A DNA stretch of 64,000 bases from Styela clava (GCF_964204865.1 NC_135264.1:9052001-9116000), one strand, 5' to 3'. Shown: positions 3,637-47,900, counted from the first letter of the stretch. The notes: generated by a model not told the origin, from the sequence alone. Made by a program: numbers and translations.

Positions 3637-15349
<11,713 letters not shown>

Positions 15350-15520
15350 TTCTGTCGTAAATGGTCACGCCGCAATGGTATCGTATACTTGTAGGAAAAA
15401 CAAACGTCCAGCGGTGTTGAACCACCGTGTGGGATAGGATAACGAACAATATTCTAAAGTTTAAATTAATGCTAGTAATGAGACAGCTGAGACGTGTTTT
15501 CGTGGACGAGGTTTCTATAC
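15350..15520 (-). promoter_or_regulatory. Upstream/5' region of gene A conserved with gene C
   Basis: Minus-strand TATAGAAACCTCGTCCACGAAAACACG and GCTGGACGTTTGTTTTTCCTACAAG...GTGACCAT align with gene C 29789-29960. Confidence 0.5.
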
Positions 15521-18249: not shown

Positions 18250-18842
18250 CAGGGGTTCTCAACTTTTCAGTTCGCGGACCAGTAAAATTTCAAAACAAAT
18301 TTTGCGGACCGGCGGACCTTCAAAATTACCCAAAAATGTCATGAATACAAAACATAATCGAAAGACTACAATTACGATCAAAGTAGGCGGTGAAAAAGAA
18401 GACAATCCAATTTGATGAGAAATTCCCTGATGTCCTTTTAATACGTGTTTAACCCGCTTCTAATGAAGTTCCTGCAAGGCGAAGTAGAGATCTTTGAACT
18501 AGTTACTATCAAACCTCGCTGAATTATAGGCCTACTGTTATATTACGGAACATGCGAACTGTGAAGTTCTCAATCTGGTACCGTACTATGTGCTATCAAA
18601 CTCCAATGTTTTGACGTTAGTCGCCGTTATGAGGTTACATACTTAACGAACATCCAGTCGTTCGGGGTCTAAATGGACAGAGGACCTCTCACCAAGTTTG
18701 GTTGTTAGGCAAATACATCAATGATAGTTAAAAGAAATCATAAAATGAATGGACATGCCGTCAATACTTAGCAATTTGCTTATAATATATTGGAATATAT
18801 TTGGCGGGCCGACAGCGAGGTTGCCGCGGACCGGCGGTTGAG
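18250..18842. mobile_element. Degenerate hAT-type non-autonomous element
   Basis: Starts CAGGGGTTCTCAACTTTT with GCGGACC subterminal repeats at both ends. Ends GCGGACCGGCGGTTGAG; right end eroded. Confidence 0.6.
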
Positions 18843-21800
18843 TTAGTTAATAGTAAGTACAGTCTGCTTGAGTTCTAGTTCCAAACTTCTGGCAAACTAA
18901 CATAGATAGAAAAAAATTCAGCCAAACATATGAACAGATATGTCTGGGATTGACGAATGGCAATCATATTAGAATTAGACTTCTTTCATTATATGATAAC
19001 AGCAGACGAGTGAAAAAAAACGACTAATTCCCTTGTGGGAAAACTTAATTTCGAATATAATATTCGATATCGCTGTTTGAATGATTTTTTTCGTTATTCA
19101 TTGAAATAATGAATTATATTGCTTAGCCATCTTTGCATACAAATTTTGTTACTGGTTGTGGTTTTTGTCCTTTTGTGCATAATATTTATTGTGCAATATT
19201 TGCATGTCGAACTATTCTTGTTTTGTTCTCCCAGAACTTTGTGTCATTTAAAATTTGCCCTCATTGATGATATCAGATATTTCAAGTGACGATCTTGCCA
19301 TACAATAAAGTTTTTTCTATTCATAATTCAAAATCACAACAGCAGTTCAAATTTATATAAATTGCTAATGCTTCATTGATCTTTAGCAACATGGACTGCA
19401 TGGGGTGATTGGTCACCTTGTGATGCAACTTGTGAAAGAGGAGAAAAATATAAATGTGAAAATGCTAAAGGAAAGCATGTCATTGAATGTTCTGATATTT
19501 CGTATGTTTGTAAATACCTATAAAATGCCAGGGTAGAGGGTAAACTTACCACTGGTTGAGAATGTTTGCACCAAACCAAAATTACCACACTGGAAGCTTT
19601 AAATGTATATAAATATATATATTCAATTGTTATGATGCTTAATTCCATTTGATCTCGTTAACGATCCTAATGTGGCAGAATGTAGCCAATTGTACTTTTC
19701 TTTCCACATTAACATCAACAAATTCGATCATTTTATGTTGTGTTTTAAACGTGAGCAAATTAGAAGTAATTAGAAACTACAGAATTAAAAAGATTTGACT
19801 AGTCTTTTCTACATGCTTTCATTCAGTTCCTAATATGTCTTACTGGTAATATGTTGCCTGATTTATTTATTCACAGGAGAACCATTTATGATTGAACCTT
19901 GCGAAGTTGGGACAATCTGTCCATCAACTGGTGTCTGGGCAGAATGGGGAGAGTGGGGTGAATGTACAAGCAAATATGGAGGATACTATCGAACTAGGTG
20001 TGGATGGTAACAAGCTCTGTTGATCTTGGGTTCGAAACTAGTGCCAACCTCCTATTTTATGCCACCGTGTTCTGAACTAGAAAAATAAAATTTGAAATTC
20101 ATAAATCATACCATCTCATTTACTCGCCAAGTATAGAAATTACCAAAAAAGTATAAAACTTGAACTATTCATTGTGATATAATATTAAGCAATGTATTAT
20201 ACACAGATGTTCAAAATAAATTTGTTATACAGTTCTTATGTAAAACACTATCTTGCGTCGTTGACTTAATTTACCATTTATCAAATACTTAGAAGTCTTA
20301 GATCATCCAAATGGAATAACTCAGACTCATTATCAATTAACCGGTTGGACTAAACTCAGTGATTGACTCCATTCAAAGCTCAAATGACCCATGATTTGTC
20401 TCGTTATGTGACTCAGGTTTAGCAGCTTATACCCAAAACTGCTATCTACAAGAATATTTGTCACAAGGATACTCGCTGAATAAACATGTCAGTGATCGCT
20501 TACAACTCAACAATTGATAATCTTAATCAAGGGCTCGAGCCCTTGCTTTCGTGTAACTTATATGAGCTATAATTTACAGTTTGGTATTTTTATCAGGACA
20601 AGAAAATGTGCTGTATATGGTGAATGCGATCCTTTGATGGCAAATAATATGGAGGACTGTCCTGTCGAAATTGAGCCTTCTAAAACTTGGGGACCTTGGA
20701 GTACATGTTCAGCTACATGCAATGGAAACAGAATAAGGTTGAATATATCTTGTATGTATTTCACTTCGAACATGCACCTATGAATCTTGTTGTTAAATTG
20801 TTGTCAAACAAAAATACATTTCTTCAACTACAGGACAATTAGCCTATTTCTTAAATTCATTGTACTTTAAGATGGAAGTGTTTCCCAAACAGCTTTTATT
20901 TGTTTGAACTTTATCTGAATTTTGCTTTATTAAAAAGGTTCCACTTTCCATTTAGAGTTGTCAAAAATGTATCGAATATTTGAATCAATTTAAAAATTGA
21001 CTATATTCAATAATTTAGATCAGATTTTTGCAACAGACGGCCGGCCCACAGGGCATTTAGTGTGTTTTAATTCATTTCTGAAAACTGTAAAAAATACAGA
21101 ACCAATCAAATCCTTTTCTATTGTAACTTTAATTTTCAAACTCAAACGCATTGAATATAGACATGTACTCGGTTGGAGATATCGCATTTTAGAATTGTGT
21201 CGATAATATAACATCGGCTTTGTGTCAATAAGGAATATAACTTATCTTCTATAACAGACAGAAACTATGCAATAGTCAAGCTTGTCCAGATGGAATACCT
21301 TACTATGGTCTTTGCAATACTGATTGTGGAGTTATAGCTCCATCCCAGCACACAACATGGAGTCAGTGGACGGAATGTTCTGAAACCTGTGATGGCATAC
21401 GCACCAGGTGATGTTTTTTTACTGCAGAATTCTTTTCTACCAGTTTTACTCAGATAAAAATTGCTCGGTAGTAACAAGATATAAATTGTTGGAAGCGTTG
21501 GTGCAAAATAAATAATAGCACTAATTTAATTTGATCTTCAGGCAAAGATTGTGTGGAAATGCTTTTTGTGAGACTTCGTCTCCTGTGAAAGAAGAATGCA
21601 ATATAGGAAGATGTGGAGATCCAAATTGGGTATGGAGTAATTGGCTTCAGTGCACTGCTACTTGTGAAGGAACTCAGACGAGGTGAGTGTCTTGATCTGG
21701 AATTGGATATGTTGATAAAGACAAGCTAATTATATGGTGAACCAGGGCTTCAAATCTAGTTTCAAGTCCAAGTCATGCATGTGAAAGTTAAGACAGTTGC

Positions 21801-22062
21801 GAGTTGCATGGACACCGAATTTGAAGAAAACAGCAACTAAATATGAGCATGTAAAATTGTAGCAAACTTGTTACAAATAAATACATTTTACATTTACATA
21901 AGACTTGGAACATACAGACTTGTAAACGAAATGGTCAGTTATGTGAAGGCCATATTATAATTCTTGTAAAAAACTGAGAACAAATCATTGTCTATCCTAA
22001 CTTTTCTGCATTTTGAACTGATTTGATATACATTGATTTCTAATACATAATTAAATAGATTA

Positions 22063-23211
22063 CCATATTTACCGGTGGATAAGTCGCTTTTCTAGACCCA
22101 AATTTTTGGCCTGATTTTTGGGGGGTCATCTTATTAGGTGAGTATCCTCATCAGGTCTGTTTAAATAAATCGGCATTCTCGCGCTGTGAATTTGGAATTT
22201 CAATGCTGTGATTATCATATTTGAGGTTGCCGCATTTGTGTGTGCATCGCGAGTAAGGGCTATTATCGATACACTTGGGATTGCAATTTGTGAAAATCTT
22301 CAATTGTTTTTGTCAGCGTGATGTCTTATTTAAGCCGTAAACATCTTTCATTTCAGCATTTATTCTCCCTAAGTCACAAATTTGCCGCGAGGAAATTTTA
22401 TTTTAGGATGGCCCCTGACAGATTAAAGATAATTTTTAGACATTGCAAATCACAAAAACACTTGTGTTCTACAATTACCGACAGGGCCTGACGCGACAAT
22501 GATATATGTATAATACCGTAATTACGGTATTGCTGACTTAAGGTGTTTTCCTATCGTGAAATCCTCAAAATAATGTGTTGCAGCAACAGCTCAGATATGT
22601 TTTTAAATTGCAAAAATACGCATCAAAACAACATATAATCGTACATGTTTATGTACACGGATTGCGTTGGTATTTTGGAGCAGTGATACTATTTATATTG
22701 TGCAATCGCAGATTAAATTGATCACAATTAAATCAATGAAGCAACCAACACATTTCGTTTTGTGGAGATTTCGAAGTGTTGAATATGTATGTTTCATATA
22801 TACACTTTATATGTATATTTATTTATAAAAACTAAATATATTCAGGTAGTTTATCTCACATTATTATGTCCGCAGATTGCTGTGTTATTTTAGATCGGTA
22901 ATGTATTTATATGGTGGACGCAATCGCGAGTCACGTTGAATACAACTAGATTGAAATTGAAAGACAGTTTGAATTCTCGTAGTTGTTATGAATTGAATAT
23001 TACTCTAAAAGAAAAGTCATTATAGGCTATTTTAACCAATGCACGGACGGGGCGACCGGTCAAAAGCCTTTGCAAGGTAATTTGAGATTTCGATGTTGAT
23101 GCGATTTTACTACCCCGTCTTATTGACAGGTCTATGCAAAAAGCCATTTTTCAGGCTTAAAAACGGGCTTCGTCTTATTTACCGGGTAGACTTATTCGCC
23201 AGGAAATACGG
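22063..23211. mobile_element. Tc1/mariner (pogo/Tigger-like) non-autonomous element
   Basis: TA|CCATATTTACCGGTGGATAAGTC ... GACTTATTCGCCAGGAAATACGG|TA: imperfect TIRs with TA duplication. Confidence 0.75.
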
Positions 23212-23479
23212 TATTTTAGAATGCATTTGAAATGCCAAATTATTCGGTTTTGGCCATCTCTGAATCTAGTCTATATATCACCTTTTTTAATTTTTTTTCC
23301 GATATCAAAAAAGTATATTTACAATCGAAGATTTGATTTAAGGAACATATCCCTATTATTTAAATTGATTTCTGACTGTTCTTGTTAAACAAGGTATAAA
23401 TTATGCGGCCAGGCACTTTGTTATGGCAAAGATCCTGCAACAAGAGAATGCAATACTAATCCATGTTCGGGCAGTGAAG

Positions 23480-23650
23480 GTTATTCATATTCATCAACAT
23501 TGTACACAACAACAACCACAGGATCGTATTTATCAACAATGTATACATCAACACCACCGGGATCGTATTTATCAACAATGTACACAACAACGACCCCGGG
23601 GCCATACTTATCAACATTGTACACAACAACGACAACAACAAACACGCCTG
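23480..23650 (+). repeat. Coding Thr-rich minisatellite, 4 units, gene B exon 14
   Basis: GSYLSTMYT..P-type units; exon 321 nt. Confidence 0.9.
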
Positions 23651-24864
23651 AAAATGCAAGAGATTGGGGGCTTTGGTCAAGCTGTTCAGCTACTTGTGAT
23701 GGCACGAGGGTCAGGTAAGTGAAATGATGTAAGTATAAATATTATATGTTGGTGTATATGTTGTATTATGTAAAGGTGAAATACTTGCTTCTTATGTAAA
23801 AATATGGATTATATACAGTACTACAAGTGCTGCATATTTTTTAATTGTATTTGCTTTCATTGTAACAAAATTTGGCATTGGGTTTGCTTCTATATAGATA
23901 AATATATAATACTGTATAAAAATATTTTTTCTAAACCTGTCAGATATTTGGGTGTTTTCATGAATTGTTACTCCTCTTAATGTAATTTTCATATTATATC
24001 GAATACAGGAAACAGCACTCTGATAAGTAGTCGGAATAAGCATAAATGCATTATGGGTACATGAATACATTTCATGTCTCTCAACAAATATGCTATTACT
24101 TTTTATGTTTTACCACAATGTATATAATAGGTTTAAAATCACTTGACAAAACATACTTTGAAAATGCAGAATTTGAAAGAATTTGAAATTTATCTCTCGT
24201 CAGATATTTCCAATTCAAGTGGTCGAGTTCCATAATTAGTTGCTCATTTATATCAGTTGGGACATATACAGGTACCTACCTAGTCGTTTAAATAGGGAAT
24301 TATTTCTGCTATGCAGGCAAAGAGCATGTAGGACATGCTGTTATAACCCTGAGACAGAAACAGAGAATTGTAATGTTGGATTGTGTAGCTCAGACAGAGG
24401 GGCAGATGGAACAGATGAGAGTGAGATTTATATTTAGTTTATTTGTATAAAAATATAGTGGAGTTTCAGGGTTTTAACTTGGTGATCGTAAATCCATTAA
24501 AAATATGTGAATTTCCATCCAGCAATATGGTATCTATTAAGAAAATATTCATTCCGCTCATAATCAGGGAGCTCAAGTCAACTGCAGTTACAATGACGTC
24601 AGTATGTACCGTGATAGCTATAAAATTTTATTGAGGAACTGTCAATTTTTTTGTTAATACCTATTGACTATTGTAAATACCTAGAGACCACCGAGCTTTT
24701 TATGCACGAAGTTACCATGAAGCACATTCAAATTCATCATTAACATTTATTTTATTGATATGCTTCGTAATTATGACTATGACTAAATGATTAAAGCCTA
24801 AATTTTCATGATATCCCGGCACAAAATGTCATGAAAAAGGGTCGATTAGGCTCACGCAATGAGC

Positions 24865-25680: not shown

Positions 25681-25689
25681 AATATTTCA

Positions 25690-28139: not shown

Positions 28140-28660
28140 TAAAATAATGCTTTACATAAATTTTTCAATTCCCTCTCAAATGGGTTGTTTATTCTATAAT
28201 TCTCTATATTTTTCTACATATTATGGCCATTTTTATCTGCTTTTTGAGAAAGGCAAAATGTGGTGTTTTATTTTCGAATATAATAGAATTTCTCATGGTC
28301 AAAATTTTATATCTCACTATTGATTACAAAAGTATAATTGCATCCAAATCAACAGTATCTATATGACTAGATAAAGGATCGTTAAAATTAAATAATATGC
28401 AAGAATCATATTGATAACAAAATGTATTCTAATCAATTTTAATATATCTAAAACAAAATCTTCATAAATATTTTTTGTAAATTTACAATACATGAAAATA
28501 TGTGAAACAAACTCAGGTTTTCCATTACATAATACACACATTTCATTCCCTGCTATTCTTCCAATTTCTGGCTTTTGTTTTCAATGGCAAGATATCCCAG
28601 AGTAATTTATAGTTAAAATCAGTATTTTTAATAAGTAAACGAATAGCTCGCAGAGCCATA
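28140..28660 (-). mobile_element. L1/Tx1-type LINE ORF2 C-terminal (CCHC zinc-finger) remnant
   Basis: DFNYKLLWDILPLKTK..W....CVLCNGKPEFVSHIFMYCKF, followed by KILTMRNSIIFENK. Resembles the L1 ORF2 Cx2C-E-H-F-C and W..RN..F motifs; contains stops. Confidence 0.65.
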
Positions 28661-29121
28661 TGATTCACATGGAGCACAGAGCTATGATCGAGAGAAGCCG
28701 TGGTTCGCCATATATTTAGGCCTTCTTTTCGGCTTTCTTCTCCCCTTGGATAAATATGTAAATCCCATGTTATATCAATTGATAAATACATAAATAACCG
28801 CACTCCTCTCGGCGACTGGTTCATATTTTGTTCTGTAGATACGTTTTCTGTCTAATAGATATGCATTCCCAATAAGCATATGCTCATGGTTGTATGCTTT
28901 CAGCGTACCATACTTCGAAACCCAAAACTAAATATGTATTGAGGAATTAAAGACCTCAATACGGCCAATTTCGCACCCGACTCGGCTGAAGCAAGGGATT
29001 TTGGCAGCGAGCAATGCGTTTTCTTAATATGCAACGAACCATTTAGCTGGACGACGTAAAAAATGCAGGGAAAAATGCCATATTGAGCAAATCTTTGCAA
29101 GTTTCCACTCATTGTATATAT
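28312..29121 (-). repeat. Right arm of long inverted repeat (partner 24865-25680)
   Basis: Reverse complement of the left arm with only scattered substitutions and small indels. Confidence 0.95.
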
Positions 29122-29969: not shown

Positions 29970-32900
29970 ATGGAAGAGCAGTCAAAGAAATCTGGTGCCG
30001 GTGAGTTATTTTATTAAGTTTTTGGCTTATGGTTAATTCTGTAAATCGACTGCCGTAACAAGGTAGGCTAGATTCGTGAAACAATACGTAGACTACCGGT
30101 ACGCAATGCGGCTAGAGCATGCTGTTAGTGTTATTTATAAGTGATGTAGTACTGTAGTGTACCGGTACCCCACTACCGGTACAATGTTGTCTTGTGGAAG
30201 GCACGAAGTTCAGCAAAAATTTCGGAAATGTCTTTTCAGGACACCCAATATATTATGGAAATTTGTCACTTGTCAATCTCAGCCATGAAAAGACTCGGCG
30301 GTGTTGCGCATTGTGCTAAGCGTTAGGAATACGCTCGCCACCGCATCTCTGATTACCCTTCATGGGATCGCAGGTTCGAATCCCATTCGGGGATGATCAT
30401 GTGCGAGAGGATTGCTGGACTCCTCGCAGGCGTAGGGTGGTTCACGTAACCGCTGGTCGCTGGTCACGTAACCTGGACTGGTAACCGGACGAGAGGCCGT
30501 GGTTTGCCATATGATTAAGTTGTCTTATCGGCTTTCCTCTCCCCCGGGATAAATATGTAAATCCTATCTATCATTTCAGTCTTACTAGTTGGATGTTTCA
30601 GTCGAATACTGTATTTTGTTTCATTGAGACGATTATCTGGCAATTTGAGTTCGATATTTTAAAAAATAATACCGATACCCTATCTCATTTTTCAGAGCAG
30701 AAGAAACTAATTGTTGCAGTTATTTTTCTCTTGATTGTGATTGGCATAGTCGTAGCCATACTTGCGCTCCTTATGCAAGGTAATTGTAGTATATTTAATC
30801 AAAGAAGATTTACCTCGAGAGCCGACCAGGGAAGTGATTCTTTATTCTGGATATCAAATATTTGCCTTAGTGACTGTCTTTTTGTGATTCATCGCTCATG
30901 CATCATAAGTTTGAAAACGAATATGTAACTTATATGGCAATATTTCGCATTGTTTGATTGAAAAATATATATACCGTAATTGATTTCTTAGGAGATGAAT
31001 CGATTGATCCAAGATATTTCCAAAAAGCATCATGTGAAGTTGAAAATCCATCACCAATAGAAACAAATGCTTGCTTGAGTAAGTTTCTTTATTATCCTGA
31101 ATATCGTTTTCCATGTCAGTCGTGTTTATAATCTCATATTTAGGTTATTTCTCTTCGTTGCACATATATTTACATCATTTGTTATTATATAAGCCCAGAT
31201 CATTAGTTACATTTTTTTAATACAAAAGTTGGCTTCATTGGACTTGGGTTGCAAAATACAGCAATTTGTAATTTGTATCCAGGGGTCAATTGTACGTTTG
31301 TTTCATCGGTTTGTGATACTTCTTGTCCATTCGACTATGAGACTGATCCTGTAACTAAATGTCAAATTAGCTGCGAATGTGCACCTTCAGGAATTTATCA
31401 AGGGGATATTAAGTTTGTTCCTCAGCAAGTCAAAGCCATGTCTGAAGTAGGTATTGTGTTGCACTTACGTACCAAATAAACAAACAGTAGCAGTTTGTTT
31501 GTATTCTCTCTCAATTTCCATATTTTTACTTTCTGTCGGAATTAGATGAACTAGTTGCATGTAATTTATCACACTCATTGTGTTCAAATAAAAAAAAACA
31601 ATAGCTTGCGATAAAATTTTTGTCCATCCGTTTGGAAAGAAAATTATTCTTAAGCTTACAAGTGGGCTAATTGATATACAAAATGGATGCTATCTTCAAA
31701 TGTGAATTCTCTATCGGGTATTTTTGAATTTGGATTGAACATTTTCCAACTGCAGTTAGCAATTCATAAGTGTAGGCATTTTATTACTTTTCAATTCAGG
31801 CATTGATGGCAGAATATTAAAGCGTCGAATTTTATTAATTTGTCGAGTTTATATGCTTATCTATGTTAATATTCAATGGTACTGATTGTCAAACAATTTC
31901 TGTAGAAGTACGGATATGTCGATGAGGACGATTTTGATCTTTTTTATGGATCCAGTAAATCTGATACTATATTATGGAAAGAAAATGAAGTTAATGGAAG
32001 ATATCAGATTGGATATGTTTACGATTCTACAATAAAGCCATGTGAGGTTTCATTATATTAATATATTATATTATATTATTCATTATATATATGTATCATC
32101 AATTTAAGCTATAATATTGAATTCGATTTTAACAATTTGAATTGCTATTGTATATTTTATGAAAGTTTTATTTTATAAAACAACAAGGTATTTATTTTAT
32201 AAAACTTGTATTGTGATAAATTTCACTCAGCAATATTTGGAACAAGTCAAGATTTTATTTTAAAAGGATTCTAATACATCTTAATTTTTTTTCTTTTTAA
32301 TTTGGATTGGCGTAATTAAACTGAATTGTTTCGATGCCTGAAAAACATATATATTTATTGTTGATGAGTTTCTATGCCGAAAACCATACAAGTCCTAAAA
32401 AGAAAATTATTTCAAATTGTATCTTGAAACAATGCTAATAAGTAAACACATTTAATATTTTGTGCAGTTACACATGGAAAACAGGACATGCAACCATGTT
32501 TTTTTACTCACAATCTCACATAATACCTTGTTGCGACATTTAGCCTTTTTATTTACCATAATTCAGTGAGTAGAAGCGCCTGATAATGCAATATATTTTT
32601 GAAACAATTGAAACTCCCCATTACATTTGGAATTGATTATGACCGTAAAAACTGAAAATTTCCACCGAGTTTGAAATGTCTTGCGACTTGTGATATATAA
32701 TTTGAATGTGCTGCCCAAGAAACTACTAAAACTTTTTATTGAATCAAACACTTCTTGTTTGTTGCATTTGGAACAAGCTGTGGCAAAGAACATAGAAAAA
32801 GCTATGAAGTTGATGGCAGAAAGTATATGTATTGATTTTGTGCCTCATACAAATCAAGAACATTACATTGAGTTTGACACTGCTGATGGATGTTCGTGAG

Positions 32901-35900
32901 TATCAATGAGATTTTGTCAGTAGCCAGTAATTTTCATCAATGCTTTGACATAGATGTTCTTATTCATAACTCATGAATTGTCACCAAACAACTTTTAAAT
33001 GCCTATGTGTTCATTCAGAAGTGAGGATAGTTTGTAGTCCAATATTTTTTTTGCTTTTCATCCTTACTTTAGATTCACAGTATATTTTTTTACAGAAATA
33101 GGAAGTTTGTTCAAAAGCAAAATCATGCACATGCAGAAATAAAAGAGATTTCTGTTAATCTCAATTTCTTCTATTTGTATATACTAAGTGATTTATTAAA
33201 ACGAGTATGCATTCTTTTATCCAGGTCTAATGTTGGATTAGTTAAAGACTCAGAGACCCCGCAGAAAGTTTCAATTGGTCATGGATGTGATGATTCGAGA
33301 ACTGTTCATCATGAGCTCAAGCATTTGCTTGGATTTGGGCATGAACATTGTAGAGCTGATAGAGATGCGTATATTACAGTGAAATTGGAAAATGTTAGAG
33401 AGGGTAAGGTTTCTCAAGTGTTTGTAGAATATTGAATATGCTCAGCATAGATTTTTTAATTGATAACACTTTATTCAGTACAGAAACGAATTTTAAATCA
33501 GAGCTTTTCTATACAGATCTGTTACAAGGTCATAACAGTTTTGCAAAAAAATTATCTTCTGGGTTTTATTCTCGGTCTCTTGACTGTTGTTTTGTGTTTA
33601 TCACCCTGTTCATCCTCCCCTTTAACTAAATCAAAAAAATTTCAAAATTGAACAGTACTACTTCAGAATGACTACCCTAATTTGTATTTTGTTCCAATTT
33701 TTAGGTATGGAAAACAACTTTGTTAAAATAAAAAAAGAAAATGCTGTAATAAGTGGAGTACCTTATGACATCACATCAGTGATGCAATACGAAAGTGGAT
33801 ATTTTATGAAAACCCTCGGAAGATATACAGTGGTGGAATATGGAACGGAATTACCACTCATTCTAGATATGGGGATAAGATATACCGAATATGATGCATT
33901 TGAAATTAACCAACTTTATGGCTGCCTGGATCCTGTAACAACCGGTAAAAAATTGAGAAAACAGGTTCATCATACAGAAAACAACACACACCTTCTGGTC
34001 TGCTTATGACTAGGGCTGGGCATTTTCGAATATCTGACGAATTCAGATTCGAATCGAATCTCGAATATTTGGAAGATATGAAATTGTATGTAACTTTCTT
34101 ATTATTTTTCTTATTATTTTACATAAATTACTGAAAACGTAGAATACATTACTAACAATAAAAAAAAACACGTTTTCATTAAACCCCCAATACAGAAAAG
34201 AGTCATATTACAGAATTGCGTTAAAAAATATGGCTTCAATGAAAAAAAATGAGAAATTTACCCCGACCATTGGCAGAAAGAAAAAAACAAGATGGCGGCG
34301 ATTAGAAAATTTGCTCTAAACCAATTCGAATAATTTACTATTCGATTCGAAATGCCCAGCTTTACTATGACCAACCATGATTCTATCAGTTTAGTTAGTT
34401 GATAGTCAGTACAATTCATTTCAATGTTTTGTCACCAACCAACCTGTGATATTGAAGGAGTTCAGCAATCTATCCATGCATAATCATTTCCCACGACGAT
34501 TCAATTTGTTCTTTTACACAGGATAGCCTATAAGACAGAATGATATGTTTTTAGTTTACTCACGTTTAGAATTAATGGCTGTGCAGACTGAAACATGCAT
34601 ATTTCACAATCACAACAGCAGTTCAAATTTGTATAAATTGCTGATGCTTCATTGATCTTTAGCAACATGGACTGAATGGGGTGATTGGTCACCTTGTGAT
34701 GCAACTTGTGAAAAAGGAGAAAAATATAAATATAGAAGATGTGAAAATGCTGAAGGAAAGCATGTCATTGGATGTCCTGGTATTTATAATTATGATAAAC
34801 TAGAAATTTTCTAGTCTAATAATACCAAAGCAAGCCATTTTTTCAGATTAGAATAGAGATAGACAAACATGTGTGATCAAATATCAGAGGATCATCTTAT
34901 CATTCAAAACCCTGACTCATTTTCTTGTAATATAAATTAGGGCTGGAAAGAAATATATATTAGGACACTGGTTTTCAACTTTCATATTCTTAGTTCTCCA
35001 TTTTTCTATACTGTATTTAAAATTAGAATAGGCTGAGGACAAAATGCTAAACAGGCTATCCTCAGTCTGCCTAATGCAGTGCAGCTGAAAGTTGAATGCG
35101 TGGTTTTGTTTGTTTCGTTGTTTTCCACCAACAATGTTATATTGTTAGCAGATAATTGCTACAATTTGTTATGTGTAAGCCCCCTACACCAAAAGGGTTC
35201 ATGTGAATGTTTTGGTCTGATTACTTTACCAGACACATGTAATCATTGTGCCATTACTTGTTGTTACTTAGTAATTATTACTTGTTTACATGTGGTGTGT
35301 GTGTGAGGGTGTTACTTTGGTGATGGTTCACTCTAGTTTTTGACAGGCCTGGATAAGGACCTGTATATGTGTATCTGCCTTGAGGGCAAATAAACTTTAC
35401 ACTTAACACTGACACTAACTCAAATTCCTTTCTATTTTTTGAACTGGAACCGATGAACTCTCGTTGACAATATGGTCAATGAATGGATGGTTTTAAACGT
35501 AGGCCCCTAATGTAAAATTGGTAAATTTAAAGTTAAGAAATCATAGCTATGGTCATTGGATGCGTCCCGCTTTGAGGTCACAAAAATATGGTAACCCTAG
35601 ATATACAGTATATCAATGTTTAATGAACAGGTTGTGTGACTTCTATTTTGTGTACATTTACGATCCCAGCACGCTGATTTTGTCACCTAATCTATTCATT
35701 CACAGGAGAACCTCTTATGATTGAACCTTGTTCTATACGGACATCTTGTCCACCAAATGATGTCTGGAAAGAATGGGGAGAGTGGGGTGAATGTGAAGTC
35801 TCAGAATTCCAAAGCTTTCGAATGAGGTGTATAAACACTTACAACTTACAAACTCTAGATATTGGGTTCAATACCTGTGCTAACCACCTATCTCACAGTG

Positions 35901-38900
35901 TAATATGTTGTACAGTCTATGCTGAACCAGAAAAAAAATTCAAAATTATTCTGAAGGTCATAAAATCGCTATATAATCGTGAGCAGTTTATTGTGGAATA
36001 ATTCAGACTATTCATCAACTATCGATTGACTCGATTTAAAACTCGTATGACCTGTGGTTCGGTTCATATGTGACTTATACTCAATACTATCTTCTAGCAT
36101 AAGAGTCACAAGGATGTACGTCAAATAAATTTTTCATCAATTCTGTGATCTTTTTCAACTTCCCGATTATTATTCTTAGTTAAGGTCTCAAGGCGGTGTT
36201 TTGATTCAACTTTTATGATGATAAAAATAATTTACAATTCCATGTCACATTTTTGATTAGGACACGAGCATGTGCTTCATTTGACGGATGTACTCAAGGG
36301 ATTGGAATTAATGTAGAAGATTGTCCTATGGAAATTGAGTCTACTAATACTTGGGGACCCTGGAGTGAATGCTCTAGTACTTGTAATGGACAAAGAGCAA
36401 GGTGAAATATTTTTTGTATATATCTCTTATCCTTAAACTTGGAGTACACTTTGCAAACAATCTGAAAAGTATTGATTTTTATCATAACTTTCCTGCATTT
36501 ACAAAGTCGAACACATTGAATATTTATGTATAATGTATATGTATGTTTTCTGTACGTGAACATGTTAGATTTTGATTTGTTAGGATAGGATTTACATATT
36601 TATCCCAGGGGAGAGAAAAGCCGAGAACACAGCTCAATGATATGGCGAACCACGGCCCCTCGTCCAGTTACCAGTCCATGTCGGGTATGGCATTAATTTG
36701 TCAGTTATTTGGTTTTGGAAGTATGGATTGATGGTGTAGGAAGCCGTAACCAAACTTCGGTTACATGAACCACCCTACGGAGGCTAGGAGTCCGGCTCTC
36801 GCACATAACTAATTCAAACTTGCGAACCCTTGCAGGGTAATCAAAGGTGAGCTTATTCTTGACGCTTTGCACGATGAGCCGCACCGCCGTGCCCGGGTGT
36901 TTTTCAGAAGGAATAGTGGATCCTTCTGTTTTGACCACCTACAGCAGGGATGGCGAACCTTTTTCAATGAATGGGTCAAAAATTTTATTTTCATCGCGGA
37001 ACTGAAGTGAGTGGGTCACAGATATTTAATCAATGTTTGTATCTATGAAAAACTTCTGAAATCCTATAAGCTTCTGTAGGTGGTGGTGTAGTTTTGTGCT
37101 TTACTTATGTAGGACTTCTATCAGAGACTTTTTATGGCACTGGATTTTATGAAATTAGAGTACGAAAACACGCATATGAATAAACAAAAACGTTTGGGAT
37201 GATGCGGCAAATTATTTTACGGTTACAAAGAGTTTCGAGGTAATTCAACTCTGATAGTTGTATATTTTTCAATCAGCTTTCAAGCACATTAAGGCACTTT
37301 TACACTGCCCGATTGTTATTTCAGATTTCTAGGTTTTTATTTCAAGTTTGGAAGATTTTGCTTTCTCAACGCCATTGTAGGCGAGAAACTAATAAAATGC
37401 AAAGTAACATCTAGTTCTCTTATAACCCCTAAAACAGTCTGCAGATGTACTTTCGAACGAGACAACACGTTGCGAGAAATGAACAGATCAATTGCATTGT
37501 TGTGTCATAAACGATGTCAGAGCCAATAGCTGAATAACGATACACAGCGATGCAAACATGCGTCCATACAACATTAGGCGTTTTGAAAACTACCATAACG
37601 GCACAGAAATTAACAATTTAAATGAGCGATCGCAGCCCTGACTGCCCAACTGACGGTACATTATAATAGTTTAGTTATTGTTAGATTACTTTAAGGCCGG
37701 TTTTATCAATTTTTATCACTGATATATTAGCAGTTTATTTTTAAATTTTATTCGTGCCTTGGCGGGTCACGAATAAAACGACATGGGTCACTTTGTGACC
37801 CGCGGGTCAGTGGTTCGCCATCCCTGTCCTACAGCATGACAATTTTGCAAAGTTTATACCCCAATAAATACAATACAATACACCTACAGTAAATATAGTC
37901 AGCAGTATTCATTCAATGTTCCATGATTTAGAGACATTCATAGGAATGTGGTCATTTTACAACTAATTGTATTTAAAAACGAGTTACAATAACATCCAAT
38001 AGGGTGTTGTGCATCATGCTAAGCGTTAGATATACGCTCTCAACCACACCTCTGGTTATCCTGCATGGGTACGAATCCCATGCAGGGATGATTGCTGGAC
38101 TCCTAACCGCCGTAGGGTGCAAAATAAAAGTACAAAAATAAAATAATTATCGTCGTTATCGTCACCCAAATTTGTGATTTAGAGAGATTAAACACCAGTG
38201 TAAGCGTGTTTACGGCCATAAATAACACGCTGATAAAACAATCTGCGGTTTTAGTAGAAGGCAATTGCACGCGTTATTGGTTACTTTTTCAGTTTTCACA
38301 ATTCCGTGCAAGTACAAAAATAAAATAATTATTATTGTTACCGTGCACAAATTTGTGGAAAATTTGTGATTTAGAGAGAATAAACACCAATGTAAAGGTG
38401 TTCACTTGCACGCGTTATCGGCGACTTTTCAGTTTTCAAAAAAGGGGTGGAGGGGGTTCCACCCCGAACCCCCCCCCTGGCTGCGCCACTGCCCACTTGG
38501 ACTGGTAACTGGACGACTGGACGAGAGGCCATGGTTCGCCATAGAATTAAGCTGTCTTATCCACTTTCCTCTCCCCTGGGATAAATATGTGAAACAATAT
38601 TTGAATGATTTTAAATAATAATTTATCTTCTGTATCAGACAAAAACTGTGTAATGGTGAACCTTGTCCTGGTGGAATACCGTACTATAGCTTTTGTAATA
38701 CTGATTGCGGAGTTCTACCTCCAGCCGAGCACGCAATATGGAGTCAGTGGACGGAATGTTCTGAAACCTGTGATGGTATACACAGCAGGTGATGTTTGTT
38801 TTTCTTTTGAAGTGAATTTTCTGAGGGCAATGTCATGTATACTCAGAGATACCACTCTGAACAATCGCTCAAGTGCTGTGAGCTAGGAAAACTAGGGTTA

Positions 38901-41900
38901 CTCGGCAGTATATGCCGATTGATATAAGACATGAACAAATACATCAGAATATTCTAAATATCAACTCCATTATGATAGTAGACATGATTCATATTGGAAC
39001 CTGTAATCAATATTTTCAACCTGTCCGATACTTTCCTATGTAAAAAGCATATATATATATATGTATTTCGCTATTTGATTAAGATACTCAATATTTAATT
39101 TAATTACTCTAATTATCTGTAACATACTCAACACATGAATATGCCGCTCAAAATAAAAAGCAAAAAATCTCAAGATCGCAAAACTGCATCAGAACCAACA
39201 AGCAATTCCAATCCACCGGATCCCGGTCTGTCACCAATAGTACCATCTTCACCTGGTTCATCTTCCTCATCCTACTCAGGTCGTAGAGCAGAGAAACAAC
39301 TGACACCACCTGTTTCCTCTTTATGCTTGACAAAGATTCAGGAAAATATTCAAAATAACATAGAAATTCAACTTCCAAGCATCATTGCTCGATGCATCTC
39401 TGAGAATTTTAACAACTCATCAGGGTATTTACCCTTGAGCCCAGTATTAAAAAATATTATGGACAATCAAAATCAGTCCTTGACGGGAATTAAAGATGAA
39501 CTATCTGTCATCAGAGAGTCGCAGGACTTGCAATCTAAAAAGTTTGATGACATATTAAAACATCATATAAATATGGATGACCAACTGAAATATCAAAATA
39601 AAAAAAGTTCAATGCTTAGAAGAATGCATCCTGAATCTTGAGGATCTTTGGTATTTATCTGAACACACTGAAGACCAGGAAAGGTGCTCCAGACTCGAAA
39701 ACCTGGAGTTTCATGGAGTCCCACCCTTAGCAAATGAAAACACCAACAAACTGGTTTTAGAGATTTTAAAACTCACCGAGGTGAATATCCAGCCAAGGGA
39801 TATTTCTTTTATACATCGCTTCCCTACAAAAAGTCCAAAAAAAAACACCCTCCTATTATTGCTCAATTTACTAACCGAAGAATTCGACATCAGATTTTCG
39901 AAAACAGCAAACGATTAAAGGCTGCTTCAAACACATCTAATATTAGGGACACGTCTAAAGTTTTCATTTCCGAAAACCTCACTAATAGGAGCAAAGATTC
40001 ATATTTTCAAGCAAAGGCGCTAAAAATAGATGCGGTTAGGCGTACCTATGCACCTTCAATGGAAAAGTCCGGATAAATAAAAACAGAATAACAGATACTC
40101 TTGAACCTTGGATGAAGATGATCTCCAAAAAATAAAATTGGTCAGACTTTTTTAATAACCTTCATTTTTCTTGTATAATTAGTATTTTCCATGTCTTTTG
40201 AACAAAAATATGTTCAATATGTCATTTTTTGTGCTAACCCAATTTTTTTATATGCTGCAATTTGTGTGACCTCAAATTTCATCCTAAATGTGTTGCCCCA
40301 TTGCTCCACACAACTTTAAACTATATTTGTGAAGTGTGCCTTGTTCCAAATTCTCATGCCTTAGCTTGGAGCAGTGGTTCCCAGACAGGCCAAAATCAGA
40401 ATCGGAGGGATGTTTGCGTGCCTGATGAGTGTAGCGCCCGAAAGTGCGCGGCGATTTAGCTGTGGTTCAATGGATCCACCATTGTTTCCAATAAAATGTC
40501 TGTTTATGGAATCTAGTTTCCGTTTGTGTTTTGATATCTCCAAGCTTTTTTATGTGGTTGATAACTAAATTACTTCCATATGTAATCCTAATACCGGTGT
40601 GTATAATTAATTGAATTGTTACAAAAAACACATGCCCAAACTGTGATAATCACGTAACACACTAGGACACAAACAAAATCTTTCGAACCCTATTCTCTCT
40701 GAGCTCGGCGGGCCATTTTAAATTGTTAAGCGGGCCGGAATTCGCCCCCGGAGGTGTTTGGATTTTTATACGCCATGATGTTTTATTTATTGAAATCATT
40801 GAGCTTAGACTCAACTTTCCCCATTGTGAAGATATATGGATCCAGATCAATGAATCCTCATTCGATAACCCCAAAGAGTTCATTGTTGGAGTTGTTTTCA
40901 AGCATCCTAGAAACAATCTTTCCGAATTCATGAAATCAATGAATTCACTGCATTCGGAATGCCCCTTTATGATCTTAGGGGACTTCAATATTAATTTACT
41001 ATCCAAAGATAATTGTGTATGCTTCTATCGCACCTAGCCGTTCCTATCATAACGCGCCCAACAAGAATACCCTCGACATCACATACATTAATTGATCATA
41101 TATACACGAATGCAACTGAACGCTGTTCCTCATCTTTCATTATAAAACATGATATATCCGATCACTTTCCTGGTAAGTCAACATTTTCTTTTCGAATACA
41201 ACTTTCCGCAAGACCAAACCTTGCATGAAAGAAAAAAATGTCCCATTTCCATGAAGAAACATTCAGAAATGATGCTCATGGAATTTTATTGACAGAATTG
41301 TTCACAGATAGCTTCAATGAGGTGTTCAACATTTTATGACCCCACTGGAACATTTCACTGGACCTATCTCCATTTTATCATGTCTGGCAATTGTCTTTGA
41401 GAAACATCTGTATTGCAGATTAGGTGATTTCTGTGATGAGAACAAACTAATAAATAAATGCCAATTTGGTTTCCAGAAAAATCACTCAACAAGTCATGCC
41501 ATAATTGACCTCATAGAATATATCTATGATAAATTTGAAAATGGAGGGGATGTCTGCTGCGCCTATTTAGACATGGAAAAGACCTTCGATACCGTTAGTC
41601 ATAGCATACTCCTTCGCAAACTTAGTCACTATGGAATTTGTGGTTGCGCGCGTGCCCTCATCAATGATTATCTGCAGGGCAGACTCCAATTTGTCAAAGT
41701 TGACTTTCACCGTTCCCAAGTTCTTCCAATGAAGCTGGAGTAATCCAGGGTCTTGCTTTGGCCCATTATCATTCGTACTTTTTATAAATGACATCTCTCA
41801 TTGCTCTGATTTGATGTCCAAATTATTTGCAGATGACACCGGTCTTCTCAGTAGTTCCCAATCTTCACTAAACCTCCAAAAAATGTCAACCTAGAAATGG

Positions 41901-44900
41901 AAAAAACTTATAATTGAATGCTATGTAACAAACTCACCATCAATATAAAAAAGTCTAAAGTAGTCCACATAAATAAGCCCAATCCCAACTACGACAAAAC
42001 TTTTCTAGAAATCAATGGAAACAAACTCGAGTCTGTGCCTTCATATAAATATCTAGGTTTAAACATAGACAATCGCCTACAGTGGGATGTGCACATCAAT
42101 GTAGTGCAAAAAAAAATTTCACGTTCGGTGGGCATCATGAGCAAACTTCAACATTACACAGACAGAAATACACTGAAGATAGTCTATTATTCTATTTTTC
42201 AAATATATATCCAATATGCAGTTGTTGCATGGGGTTCAGCCTCCAATTCAAAACTAAATCTTGTTGAAGTTTTACAGAACAGGGCTGTTAAAATTCTCAA
42301 TAGACCTACTGCTTATATTAACATATCATGTATCACGAAACTGGTCTCCTGAAGTATACCAATATTTATCATCTAGAAATTTGTAAATTGATGCACCAAT
42401 TCCACAATTGTTGCCTTCCAAAGGCATTCAATAACTACTTTGTCAAGCAAAGCAGTCTTCACAAATATGACACTAGATCAGCATCTACATCATCACTGCA
42501 TGTGCTTCGCCAGACTTACACTAAAACTCAAAATTCACCCAAATATATGGGTGTTATTATGTGGAATGCTCTCCGTGCCGAAGTACGAAGCATGTCGTAC
42601 CAACTTTTCAAATCAAATATGAAAAAGAATTTCTTGTCGACTTACTTCGAATGTTTGTAACAACCCGACCAAGATCTTTTGTTGTGGCTGATTTCATAAC
42701 ACCACCTGAAAAAATAACTTGTGAAAGGTTGTCGAACCACCGCACTGACCTACTGTAGTAGATGTTGTATAATTACAATAGCTAATATATTATGTCTGAT
42801 TTACTGCAACTAATTTTCTCATTTTCATAACACTTGTCTCTTTTTATGGAAAACGTTTATTACTGTATTTATTGGCCTTTAATCAGTGAATAAGTTCATA
42901 TTCGAATTCTGTAGTTGAAACAATGCCATGAGCAATGACACATGGTATTTATATGTTCAAAAGCAATTGAAACATGTACTATTAACAGCTGTTGGTCTAG
43001 CACAAAATATTGTTTTAATGAACCACATCTACATTGATGTACGGTATTTCTGTACGAGTGATTACCACTGCAGCAATGGGTACCGTACCAGTATCGGTAC
43101 TTCTGTACTGTATCTCGTTTAATTTAGTGCCACAGATATCTGGTCTTTTTATTTAATGCTATAAGATTTTATTACCTGTTTTCTCTATTATTTCCACATT
43201 CCTTTCAATATTTAGCGGCCAATACACCGCCTCTGGATCTAATTGAATGCCAGTGTTACGCCATCAGAATCTGACGTTTAATGCGCATCACAACACAGTG
43301 CAAGTGACTATAGTCACTTTGGATACAGTCCACTAATGCCATCTCCATGGTTACCAAGTTATTGGTGTTCGATGTCGTCTTTTGTTTTGTTGAAGCGAGC
43401 GACTGCTGATTATAGCAGATCGCCTCGAGATATTGTATGTATTTTTTTCTCAATTTACTTATACTTAGTGTGACTTTTTCTTTATAACATAGTTCTTAGA
43501 CTTATTTTATAGGTGCTGTTGCTCGATAACCAGTACTGGTTTCTCGCGTCTCCTATTTATAATTTGTATGTTTGTGCCTATTTTAAGTATGGTGAGATAT
43601 AAACTACTGATTACTGAGTGTTAGCAATCACGCTATCTCCAGCCATGTACACATATCAGCATTTCTAACTTTTGTTTACCCAGTTAATAGGAGAATACTC
43701 TACGAGTTGTCCGGTAGGATAGGATTTACGAACCGGTACATTTTATTCTGAAAACTCAACTTCCGAGCTTACAAATCAAATTAGATGGCGAACCTTGGGT
43801 GTCGCTGCTCGATAACCAGATTTGGTCCCCTGCGGCTTCCCTTCCCCAGTAAAAATGAGTGTTGAATTTTATTTATTTTTCAATTTTGTATGTTATTTTA
43901 TTTTTGCTGGTCGGAAAAAATTAATTGTTGTAATGAAATACAGTTTGTTTACCAGTTTGTCTCATATGTGCCGTCAATAACACTATTGAATGATTTTGGC
44001 AATGGGAAAATTTATTAAATTGTAACAAAAATGAATTTGGATGTGAAAAAGCGTGTGATAATAATAAGGGCGTGTCGTGGAATGGGAAAGGGCAAGCAAA
44101 ATCGAAGTGAGTGATCGGCAGTGTGTCTCATCTTTTACAATAACGTGAGGTGCTCCGAAGGCGCTCTTGTGTATCTTATTGTAAGAAAACAGTTATAATA
44201 TGAGAAACTATTAACCATTTGTTCGGGCTCAACACACTTTTCGGAAATGATAACTCTGTATGGCGGAAACAACATGTATTTGAATATAGACAAAGGGGGG
44301 CGACCCCAGGTCTCCGCGCCTGCTTGGTACAATATGCTAATCACTGCGACACATTAAATCAATATTTTCAAAATTTCATATATTTTTTTTGCAGGCAAAG
44401 ATTGTGTGGAGAAACGTTTTGTGAGGCGTCGTCTCCTGTGAAAGAAGAATGCAATGTAGGAAGATGTGGGTATAGCGATTGGATGTGGATGACTTGGACA
44501 GAGTGCTCTGCCACCTGTGAAGGAACCCAAACTAGGTTAGCATCAAATTCTGGTATTGGATAAGTTGACAGGCTAATTATATGGTGAACCATGTAGTCCA
44601 ATTCATGTGTGGTAAAGTGGCCAGTTGCATGGACAGTTATGTTTAAGGAAGCAGCACTCACTTGTGGTATGAGTTATCCTGCACCATTTTTCAACGAAGT
44701 TTTGACCTACAATAAGCTCCATGTATTTGGATAGGATTTTTATATTTATCCTGGGGAAGAGGAAAGCCGATAACATGGCTTAATCATATGGCGAACCACG
44801 GCTTCTCATCCGATTACAAGTCTACGTCAGTATGGGATTAGTTGTCCAGTTATTTGTTGAAGTCGTATGGAGAATAGTCCATATATAGGATAGCCGGCGA

Positions 44901-47900
44901 GGAATCCATCCATCCTCCACCACAGCGTTCTCAAACTTTTTTTGCACTGGAAAACCTACGCTTTTTAAATTAAAAGGTAAAATTGGTGGGTGGTTTCCAA
45001 AAAATTTAGCTTATGGTACCGTAAATTGAAAAGTTTACTGTAAACCAGAGTTGAAAAATTAGGCCGTTAGTTAACTGTTAACAGTCGGCTGTTTGTCGCT
45101 AGTTGGGAGAAAAATTAAGACCCAGAGACCAATTTAAAAGCAATTTCAATACCTGTACGACTGCGGAACACACTGAAGAAGCTGTTCCGTGGAAGACAGT
45201 TTGAGAAACATTGCTCTACCGCAAGATTATTCCCAAAGGATTTAAACCTATGAACCAATAGACAGTAATCAGGGGTGCAATGGCAGGTATATGTGCCAAA
45301 CGCCAAACCAACAGAGATCCAATATTTTCAATTATTTTTATGAATTAAGGCGTAAAGTATGCGACAGGGGGAGGAGATGTTCAGACGATGAAGAGTCAAA
45401 AGAATGTAATTCTAATCCATGCTCGGCAACTGCAGGTTCATCATATTCATCAACATTGTACACAACAACAACACCTGGGTCATATTCATCAGCATTGTAC
45501 ACAACGACAACAACACCTGGATCAAATCCATCAATGTTGTACACAACGACGACAACACCTGGATCATATCCATCAATATTGTACACAACAACAACCCCGG
45601 GATCATATTTATCAACATTATACACAACAATGACAACAACAACCCCACCTGAAAATGCAGGAGATTGGGGGCTTTGGTCAAGTTGTTCAGCTACTTGTGA
45701 TGGCACGAGGGTCAGGTAAGTGAAATAATAAAGTATAAATATTAAATGTTCTATATTGGAGTTTACACTGTTTATATAAAAAATATAGGAGCTGAAAGAA
45801 GTTAACATATTATATTTCTGTTTGCAGACAGGTGATAGTGAGCTATTTCTATAGTTAAGTTGTTGAGTTTTATATTTAAGATAAGGTAATGATTTATTTC
45901 AGAATATTTCATTAAATACATACATACAAGTAATGCAGTAAGTCTAAACAAACAACAATAATCATGAAATATAATCGAAAAGAGGCGGGCAAGACTTCAA
46001 GGTCGACCGACGCCTAAGTAGGGGTGGGCAAAATCGAATATTTTTTCGAATCGAATAATTCGAATATTTTTAACGAATACCGAATAGTAGAATAACGAAT
46101 ATTTTTTACACACAACGGGAAGTCCATACTCCCTTTGTAAATTATTGAGATACAAAGCGTTTTTTTACTGGTTAATTTCGTCATAATCGCTGATTGTTTT
46201 TGTCACCGTGACCGTTTTTTGCGGCTATATATAATCTATATTACCGTCCTTTCTGTTTTTTGCAAGTATTAATTCTTTCGGGTCGGCGCACATCGAAGTT
46301 TATATTTCGGGTTTACCCGTGCGTTCACGTCGACAACAGCTGTTAAAACCATTGAGGATTGATTTCAAACTCAAATTAATATTATTCTAATTTTTATCAT
46401 TTGCGTTGGCTTTCATATCACTTATCAACGTTTGTAAATTTACCGTCACAATATTAAGCGAACGGTAATTGTATTATCGATAACGGGATGCAGATATTTA
46501 TTAAGACAATACCGTAATTAAGTTTGCTATGCTTTTCTATGGTGTCTATGTTACTTTACAGATAAACCTCGCAAAGCTGCGATTGCGTCAATCCCGAATG
46601 TTGATTTAAAATAGTGACTAAATAATTCGACAATAAATTCATTTCTACATGGCCATACGACCAGATGACGTTAATAAACAGCGCTTCTTGAATAATTATT
46701 TACATATGCGACCTATTGCTGAAAAAAATTGCGCTTTCGTACTTTTGTGCCCAATAGATGGCCAGGCGCTAATTATAACTAACTCTTCCAAGTTCCGACG
46801 TTTTCTTTCAAGAAACCCCGCGATCATTATATCTAATATCGTTACCGAGTAATACAAAATTTTATTTACGGAATTTGCGAGTTCAATTTTACTTCTCTTG
46901 ACGATTTTGATAATGTCACGCCCTATTTATTGGTGCAAAAATTCTCAAAATATAACGAATGTAATCATTTCCGATGATACAACAATTCGTGAACGAGACA
47001 GTGCGCGTTGTTACATCGAAATTCACGATTGATTTTACGTTATACTCCAGTTCACAATTTGTACACTTCACCCGCCATGCATGCCCGAGTGAAAAGTTTA
47101 CATTTTCGAAACATTATAGCTAATATCGTAACCTAGTAATACAAAATTTTATTTACGGAATTTGCGAGTTCAATTTTACTGCTCTTGACGATTTTGATAA
47201 TGTCACGCCCTATTTTTTAGTGCAAAAATGCTCAAAATATAACGAATGTAATCATTTCCGATGATACAACAATTCGTGAACGAGACAGTGCGCGTTGTTA
47301 CATCGAAATTCACGATCGGTTTTACGTTGATTTCTACACTCCACCCGCCATGCATGTCCGAGTGAAATTTTTACATTTTCGAAACATTACTTGGTCAAGA
47401 ATGAAAGGGATCACTGAAGAATTAATTTGAAAGTACATTAAAAGCATTATGTCCTGCCATTTCTTTACTGGTCATAGCTTGTTCGTGTTATACTATGTAT
47501 GGTTTAATGCGAAAGTTATTTCAACTTTTAATTTTTGTTTAACAAATTTATGTTTGGTTCATGCATGAAACGGCAATCAGACGGAGTTTAAAATCTGGGA
47601 TATTTATTTTAAATACCTCATCTGATTGGACGTTTCTAAATTTAGGGAACGGTGTCGGTACCTTGTTTGCAAAATAGGGAATTGAAATGAACGATTGAAA
47701 CGCAAAGAAAACAAATAGCACCACAACGCGAAGACGATTTTTCAAATTTAGCGCTTTTGTCTGTTATCGAGCGTTGTAGGTGAATTCTCGCGCAATTCAC
47801 GATCGGTTCAGAGACGTTCTGTGTCTAAGGGAGGCGGCGCAGATCACGTGGTACCCGATATTCGAATAGTAAAATGCCATTCCAATAATTTAATATTCGT

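Follow-up and report, generated by a model that had tools for sequence, protein, structure and literature searches.

The reading that we favour, with modest confidence, is that the Tast-type duplicates of the tunicate Styela clava have kept their catalytic residues while the S1' loop was rewritten in each copy, that the copies are likely to cut at different sites, and that this divergence was probably driven by selection. The cluster can be considered as a variant of a known family, the members of which have probably diverged in specificity. It was found in a window of 64,000 nucleotides, meaning the whole stretch of DNA that was analysed, and it runs past the end of that window: self-comparison combined with exon-by-exon translation reveals five paralogs in about 82 kb, designated A (-), B (+), C (+), D (-) and E (+). 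They trace back to tandem and inverted duplication overlaid by patchy gene conversion, and four of them are intact. The genes within the window are the following:

3637..15349, - strand: gene A (LOC120333888), intact, 861 aa encoded by 18 exons; 10122-10361 is exon 8 and 3637-3832 is exon 18
15938..24420, + strand: gene B, truncated, head-to-head with A; exon 8 at 17979-18218
29970..50555, + strand: gene C (LOC120333887), 18 exons, 884 aa
53833..64000, - strand: 3' part of gene D (LOC120333889); exons 12-18 inside the window, exons 1-11 past its end

Gene E (LOC120333891), positioned head-to-head with D, lies entirely outside the window. A, C, D and E each consist of 18 GT-AG exons, with open frames of 861, 884, 857 and 857 residues, and all four models are identical to S. 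clava RefSeq proteins (for C, XP_039257211.2). Gene B is reduced to exons 5-15 and the last part of exon 4, with exons 1-3, the bulk of exon 4 and exons 16-18 absent; its exon 9 has lost the donor and three codons, and it is annotated as fragments. Transcription-like evidence consists of spliced contigs from two sequencing runs, X5 and X10, which are guessed to be RNA. In these contigs, exons 2-3, 3-4, 7-8 and 9-10 of C are joined at GT..AG, and A- and D-type letters are present as well. Run X13 gave two short pieces only, and run X9, which carries another organism label but has contigs nearly identical to C, was excluded as an ortholog.

From its N-terminus onwards, the gene C product is made up of a putative membrane anchor (exon 2), a Cys-rich stalk and a propeptide with QGDI (exons 3-5) and an astacin domain (exons 5-8). 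These are followed in exons 9-15 by six TSP1 repeats, interrupted by a Thr-rich insert, and in exons 16-18 by an FG-GAP tail. The anchor, a hydrophobic helix at residues 11-37 behind a Lys-rich N-terminus, is predicted from the sequence and the structural model. Pfam recognizes four to five TSP_1 stretches; six WxxW repeats are seen on reading the sequence. At 45350-45715 of the window, exon 14 holds a Thr-rich, Tyr-containing repeat inside a TSP1 exon, of variable copy number and longest in C. The elements of gene C that matter here are:

33310..33345, + strand: zinc-binding motif in exon 7; three His and the catalytic Glu invariant in 5/5 copies
33705..33944, + strand: exon 8, coding for residues 268-346 in the lower subdomain of the astacin domain
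33776..33790, + strand: Met-turn SVMQY (Met293, Tyr295), the same in A, B, C and E; SLMQY in D
33791..33823, + strand: post-Met-turn segment, residues 296-306; sites 296, 299 and 303 flagged by the site model
33851..33883, + strand: S1' loop, residues 316-326; most divergent 11-residue window of the four intact paralogs
49466..50555, + strand: exons 16-18, three FG-GAP blades, residues 727-884, dN/dS 0.10

By motif, Pfam match and predicted fold, the copies can be assigned to the astacin family (M12A), with proteolytic activity predicted. The zinc motif, HELKHLLGF(E/G)HE across the five copies, conforms to HExxHxxGxxHE, and the Met-turn, in which Met293 and Tyr295 are invariant, conforms to SxMxY. 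PF01400 matches A, C and E with 150-167 bits (Pfam Astacin span 156-340). The AlphaFold2 model of gene C has a mean pLDDT of 76.6 and a pTM of 0.53, and in a Foldseek comparison its astacin fold reaches TM-scores of 0.84-0.88 to the solved structures 3vtg, 3lqb, 3edg and 1ast. With meprin alpha and beta, BMP1/tolloid, ZHE1, HCE-1 and crayfish astacin, the copies share HExxHxxGxxHE, the Met-turn with Tyr and the propeptide GD motif; the latter two have known roles in astacins. The four conserved cysteines of M12A members (185, 206, 228 and 340 here) are also in place, and the TM-score range holds over the solved catalytic domains. In contrast to these enzymes, the Styela copies have a predicted N-terminal type II anchor, Gln for His in the Met-turn and no S1' Arg.

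Within this family, the sequence features identify the locus as a Tast-type gene cluster: its origin is tunicate, the astacin domain is followed by at least two TSP1 repeats, and homology to named Tasts extends across domains. The CiTast2b cluster is among the matches (E=1.2e-71), with stalk, catalytic, TSP1 and tail regions all aligning. Tasts are described (PMC6353882, PMC11673157) as type II membrane astacins on Ciona sperm that are vitelline-coat lysin candidates and are also required at metamorphosis; they form tandem clusters without clear between-genera orthology and are transcribed in Halocynthia testis and ovary (PMC11673157). The Styela genes resemble Ciona Tasts in their single N-terminal membrane helix (predicted here), astacin domain, TSP1 repeats and tandem clustering. 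They differ in having six TSP1 repeats and a Thr-rich insert instead of two or three repeats, and in that CiTast2b has TQK at the GQR place, while the Styela copies each replace GQR differently; in a tree, they are not orthologs of CiTast2b. CiTast2b also has an FG-GAP tail (39% identity), a feature unmentioned in the accessible parts of the Tast papers. A literature search, which left most subscription papers outside its scope, listed no publication dealing with this cluster, with Tasts under selection or with the tail.

The element that is rewritten from copy to copy is the S1' loop. The initial annotation had equated the second of its two variable segments with this loop, and the assignment is borne out by an alignment to meprin beta, in which GQR corresponds to residues 321-323 of C, Ser212 to 296, Thr214 to 298, Arg184 to 268 and Arg146 to 230. 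It is further backed by a majority of G (39/69), Q (36/66) and R (39/70) at residues 321-323 in about 70 distant homologs, which indicates that the motif is normally constrained. The GQR or GQK of acid-preferring astacins is found in none of the copies: the triplets are TED, NKD, DMG (at 33866-33874 in gene C) and FSG in A-D, and ENK in E, which has a Lys without the motif. At residue 323, which is meprin beta Arg238 by alignment, the GQR Arg has become Asp in A and B, Gly in C and D, and Lys in E. Residue 296 is F, T, E, P and P in A-E; its meprin beta counterpart Ser212 contacts a prime-side inhibitor group. The five non-catalytic cleft positions taken from two meprin papers (230, 268, 296, 298 and 323 of C) all vary among A, C, D and E, against a background of 84 variable positions out of 185 in the catalytic domain (permutation p=0.009, or 0.03 when the background is limited to positions that vary in the family). 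Their omega is 2.2 (p=0.03 versus 1), and that of a wider, structure-guided set of 34 cleft residues is 1.17, not different from 1. In these comparisons, the pocket was mapped through sequence alignment instead of model coordinates, and a one-codon insertion loosens the register of D.

According to PMC3186203, an Arg or Lys at S1' occurs in more than 80% of 765 astacins and confers a preference for Asp at P1', and astacins without Arg or Lys prefer small residues. In most astacins, it is the GQR Arg that directs the enzyme to Asp or Glu at P1'. By analogy, A would disfavour an acidic P1' residue and may accept a basic one, C and D would take small or hydrophobic residues, and E may retain the acidic preference. 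It is therefore likely, judging from these residues, that the copies have diverged in cleavage specificity, a claim that is independent of positive selection. A parallel exists in the fish hatching enzymes HCE and LCE. These are duplicated astacins with cleft-edge substitutions including loss of the conserved Arg183, and four such substitutions alter the egg-envelope specificity of LCE (PMC3819744). They are, however, secreted single-domain proteins with a measured specificity, in contrast to five multidomain copies known from sequence.

How exceptional this divergence is depends on the scale at which it is viewed. The initial annotation had counted about 31 of 80 residues different between A and C in exon 8 and 5 of 65 in exon 18; the stretch at 33705-33944 coincides with exon 8 of gene C to the base, with AG/GT borders and phase 1/1, and the counts hold at 31/80 and 5/64 (5/65 with the split codon; Fisher p=1.4e-5). 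All six peptides that it quoted are found in the sequence, although one of the quoted copies is the truncated B. Its clustering of differences within exon 8 beats chance as well (best 10-residue window, permutation p=0.00025). The description of a hypervariable cleft stands for the S1' segment, which is the peak of the protein, but not for exon 8 as a whole. Between A and C, exons 6, 10, 11 and 12 differ at 19/40, 20/41, 22/47 and 20/50 residues (40-49%), and exon 8 is indistinguishable from pooled exons 6, 7 and 10-13 (p=0.90). When the four intact genes are compared along the entire protein, residues 316-326 come first of all 11-residue windows, with a mean pairwise difference of 0.80, ahead of a runner-up at 0.67 in the indel-rich exon 14; the post-Met-turn segment 296-306 ranks ninth of the 14 non-overlapping windows listed. 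Together, the two segments (22 residues) are more divergent than the remainder of the catalytic domain in nine of ten paralog pairs (p<0.01), B-E being at p=0.063. For D and E, the exon 8 of which lies outside the window and had not been available to the initial annotation, 11/22 residues differ in the segments versus 24/163 elsewhere (p=0.0004).

Positive selection on exon 8 is plausible but unproven on the codon data, and we put it at a little better than even. The tests used GY94 site models (F3x4, own implementation) with naive empirical Bayes on four to five sequences, for which gene conversion makes trees differ by exon. In the four intact genes, M2a is preferred over M1a (p=0.00017; omega2 8.4 on 13% of codons) and M8 over M8a (p=1.3e-5), with codons 270, 296, 299, 303, 321, 322 and 324 flagged in exon 8; all five flagged sites of the catalytic domain fall in this exon. 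The statistic was reached by none of 64 null simulations, and the signal is found on three of three trees, with B added (p=1.3e-5), with the D indel zone masked (p=0.003) and with residues 316-325 removed (p=0.002). Among the 16 exon groups tested, only exons 8 and 14 survive a 16-fold correction, exons 11 (p=0.04) and 10 (p=0.07) failing. The strongest site-model result, that of exon 14 (p=5e-8), was dropped as an alignment artefact, as it sits on indels and the Thr-rich repeat. The diversifying selection expected by the initial annotation is thus favoured by site models that point to its segments, but the outcome is model-dependent and TSP1 exons 10-13 are also fast. Also against positive selection, dN/dS averaged over the exon stays below 1 in every pair shown (0.47-0.90; M0 0.54).

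The main competitor of this reading is relaxed constraint. Once the GQR Arg had been lost, the S1' loop and the post-Met-turn segment would drift neutrally, block mutations, one indel and conversion would mimic an omega above 1, and the copies would be kept for dosage with broadly the same substrates. In line with this, the signal fades under richer models: when double and triple substitutions are allowed, exon 8 gives p=0.006 with four genes and 0.051 with five; with codon-wide rate variation, p=0.18 with the four intact genes and 0.028 with five; and when the shape parameter of this variation is set to 1, close to the 0.7-1.15 of other exons, p=0.089 and 0.013. The omega of 1.17 for the 34-residue cleft set agrees with neutrality, one copy has decayed, and GQR was already absent in the closest outside paralog (LOC120345409, in a cluster on contig C9), which has DNH in its place and SRVQY replacing the Met of the Met-turn. 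Conversion does occur: between B and C, exon 9 has 5/108 bases different and exon 15 only 1/102, versus 358/1542 in the other nine shared exons. These recent conversion-like tracts lie at 19387-19494 and 24317-24420 in B and at 34663-34779 and 48735-48838 in C (exons 9 and 15). Against a neutral drift, silent differences in the hot segments are not clearly raised (9/41 versus 50/279 pair-codons), and the replacement rate of the loop is about two to three times the silent rate of exon 8 in C-E and D-E; within the loop, C and E differ at 14/25.6 replacement sites versus 1/7.4 silent ones. Furthermore, two assemblies show 25 allelic replacements, not one of which lies in exon 8, where 2.3 would be expected (P=0.086); this is in the wrong direction for relaxation, though weak. 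On this evidence, we regard relaxed constraint as rather unlikely.

Selection on the cleft could also be real but serve another end, such as evading an inhibitor or acting on a target unrelated to gametes (in hatching, metamorphosis, remodelling of the tunic or defence), TSP1 repeats 2-3 being the true recognition surface and the cleft following. TSP1 exons 10-11 have an omega of 1.08 and a site test at p=0.003, and as they are equally fast, the cleft is not the only rapidly changing part. In Ciona, Tasts are active at metamorphosis, the stage at which knockouts fail (PMC6353882), HrTasts are transcribed in ovary besides testis (PMC11673157), and fetuin-type inhibitors bind astacin clefts, to go by the titles of structures. 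However, allowing rate variation weakens the TSP1 signal too (p=0.07 and 0.86), the flagged catalytic sites sit on the classic specificity loop and no inhibitor is known for these copies. This explanation seems improbable to us.

For the catalytic domain, no close ortholog from another species was found: word-index searches gave only S. clava copies and one weak match (29%), and a representative search added only distant Tast-like proteins.

The C-terminus was initially described as near-invariant. This applies to the few changes between A and C, but a dN/dS of 0.10 is ordinary purifying selection, and the homolog P0015 is identical to the C tail at only 107 of 158 positions. In nine of nine other Tast-like pairs (non-independent, catalytic identity at least 40%), conservation is lower in the tail than in the catalytic domain; in C-A the order is reversed, with 91% tail versus 61% catalytic identity. 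On these sequence comparisons, what stands out is the rapid change in the middle of the protein and not the tail. That the contrast between exons 8 and 18 is an artefact of 3' gene conversion homogenising the tail finds some sympathy in the grouping of A with D in exons 17-18 (12 informative sites versus 1; 17 log-likelihood units for exons 16-18) and in the A-C fourfold differences (12/55 in exons 16-18 versus 20/54 in exons 5-8, p=0.095), but it is contradicted as main cause and highly improbable beyond a minor contribution, since exon 18 dS is as high as that of exon 8 (A-C 0.62 versus 0.59, A-E 0.72 versus 0.62, D-E 0.64 versus 0.19) with a dN of only 0.03-0.05. The low dS by which the initial annotation would have recognized such conversion was thus not found. 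For A-C, dN is 0.33 in exon 8 versus 0.03 in exon 18, and on the four-gene tree exon 8 and tail have omegas of 0.54 versus 0.10 and dS of 0.93 versus 0.79. High dS combined with low dN implies that purifying selection, and not 3' conversion, keeps the tails alike.

The binding module that the initial annotation supposed the paralogs to share is hypothetical; structural modelling predicts that the tail is a half beta-propeller that pairs with itself. The homologous tail domain of P0015 was modelled as three four-stranded blades (pLDDT 79.8), and its best structural match is the fungal lectin PVL (Z 14.4, rmsd 2.3, 142 aligned residues, 15% identity), the next match having a Z of 11.4. Foldseek agrees with the propeller assignment; a sequence search of the tail against solved structures returned nothing, so only fold comparison gave a match. 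Blade fold and DxNGD loops are shared with the PVL, PAL and AAL2 lectins, the UmbA4 lectin domain and integrin alpha propellers. Unlike these propellers, the Styela tail has only three blades per chain, and it is not classed as a lectin. Two copies of C 727-884 are predicted to pair head-to-tail, blade 1 against blade 3, with a score of 0.68 versus 0.00 for the best of three controls; the runs agree in at least 65% of contacts, pLDDT is at least 78 and no alignment was used. In benchmarks, the mark for a dimer was reached by 21 of 30 solved microbial homodimers and none of 23 monomers, and by 17 of 29 eukaryotic homodimers (animals 7/16; 1/7 without an older solved relative) and none of 30 monomers. 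The pass of the tail may reflect its likeness to solved propellers. The predicted interface is no better conserved than the rest (9/44 versus 14/114 variable positions, p=0.21), and the idea of a constraint on the tail for heterodimer compatibility was rejected as unsupported by this conservation.

Taken along the life of the protein, selection-driven divergence of the S1' loop would fit the following course of events. By homology to astacins and to the HrTast2c model in PMC11673157, the copies would be made as type II membrane zymogens, and cleavage after the QGDI propeptide, near G137-S138, would activate the catalytic part and release it from the anchor. The tails would pair head-to-tail into a six-bladed propeller linking two protease heads, a structural role that fits the ordinary purifying selection there, and the TSP1 repeats would act as a stalk. 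To judge from Ciona and Halocynthia only, the substrate would be an extracellular coat, most likely the egg vitelline coat at sperm passage, of which the copies would cut different bonds. A bolder extension is a combinatorial egg-coat lysin, in which positively selected sperm-surface paralogs with S1' pockets of opposite charge (Asp, Gly and Lys) would pair through interchangeable three-bladed tails into six-bladed, possibly glycan-binding homo- and heterodimers, each ring carrying two specificities; we consider it a long shot.

Tasts are the leading ascidian egg-coat lysin candidates, and their substrates, their specificity and the reason for multiple copies are given as open questions in PMC6353882. 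In this cluster, nature supplies a set of four intact enzymes with different residues (Asp, Gly, Gly and Lys) at a textbook specificity position, and the predicted C-terminal half-propeller is a Tast feature unmentioned in the accessible parts of the Tast papers. That reproductive proteases diverge quickly after duplication is well known, which makes the surprise moderate.

Several minor observations concern the organization of the locus. The start codons of D and E are 491 bases apart (D exon 1 at 71366-71396 and E exon 1 at 71888-71918, in coordinates of the extended window, some 7.4-7.9 kb past the window end on contig C19), a spacing that suggests a shared bidirectional promoter. A and B are arranged in the same manner (window 15349-15938), with the first exons of B missing. 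The RefSeq isoform X2 of gene E (P0155, P0156), annotated in both assemblies, skips exon 2 and is left without the membrane anchor. At 33295-34098 of the window, a run X5 contig is spliced from exon 7 to exon 8 and then reads into intron 8 without mismatch, and represents either a precursor that is not yet fully spliced or a shortened form that stops behind the catalytic domain; intron 8 of C has an in-frame stop 25 codons in. C, D and E no longer have the exon 6 acceptor of A and B; their splice site is an AG located six bases further downstream, and they have two codons fewer (window 32772-32778 and matching places).

Beyond the window, contig C9 carries at least three more distant paralogs with the exon layout common to the window genes; at 6.74-6.80 Mb of C9 (L017-L023) four or more astacin genes of this layout form a second cluster, and one of them retains an AQR-type S1' motif. 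Repeats are found at several places in the window. An inverted pair of about 820 bases (24865-25684 and 28308-29121; 95% identity) sits where exons 16-18 of B would be, each member having a degenerate Cys/His-rich frame that we take to be retroelement-like. Intron 8 of C contains a high-copy mobile repeat (34001-34360) that is covered at great depth in each of the three informative runs; D carries another copy of it (62480-62867). Local tandem duplications occur in an intron of C (46825-47389; about 290 bases, 90%) and downstream of the gene (51315-51787; 239 bases, 99.6%).
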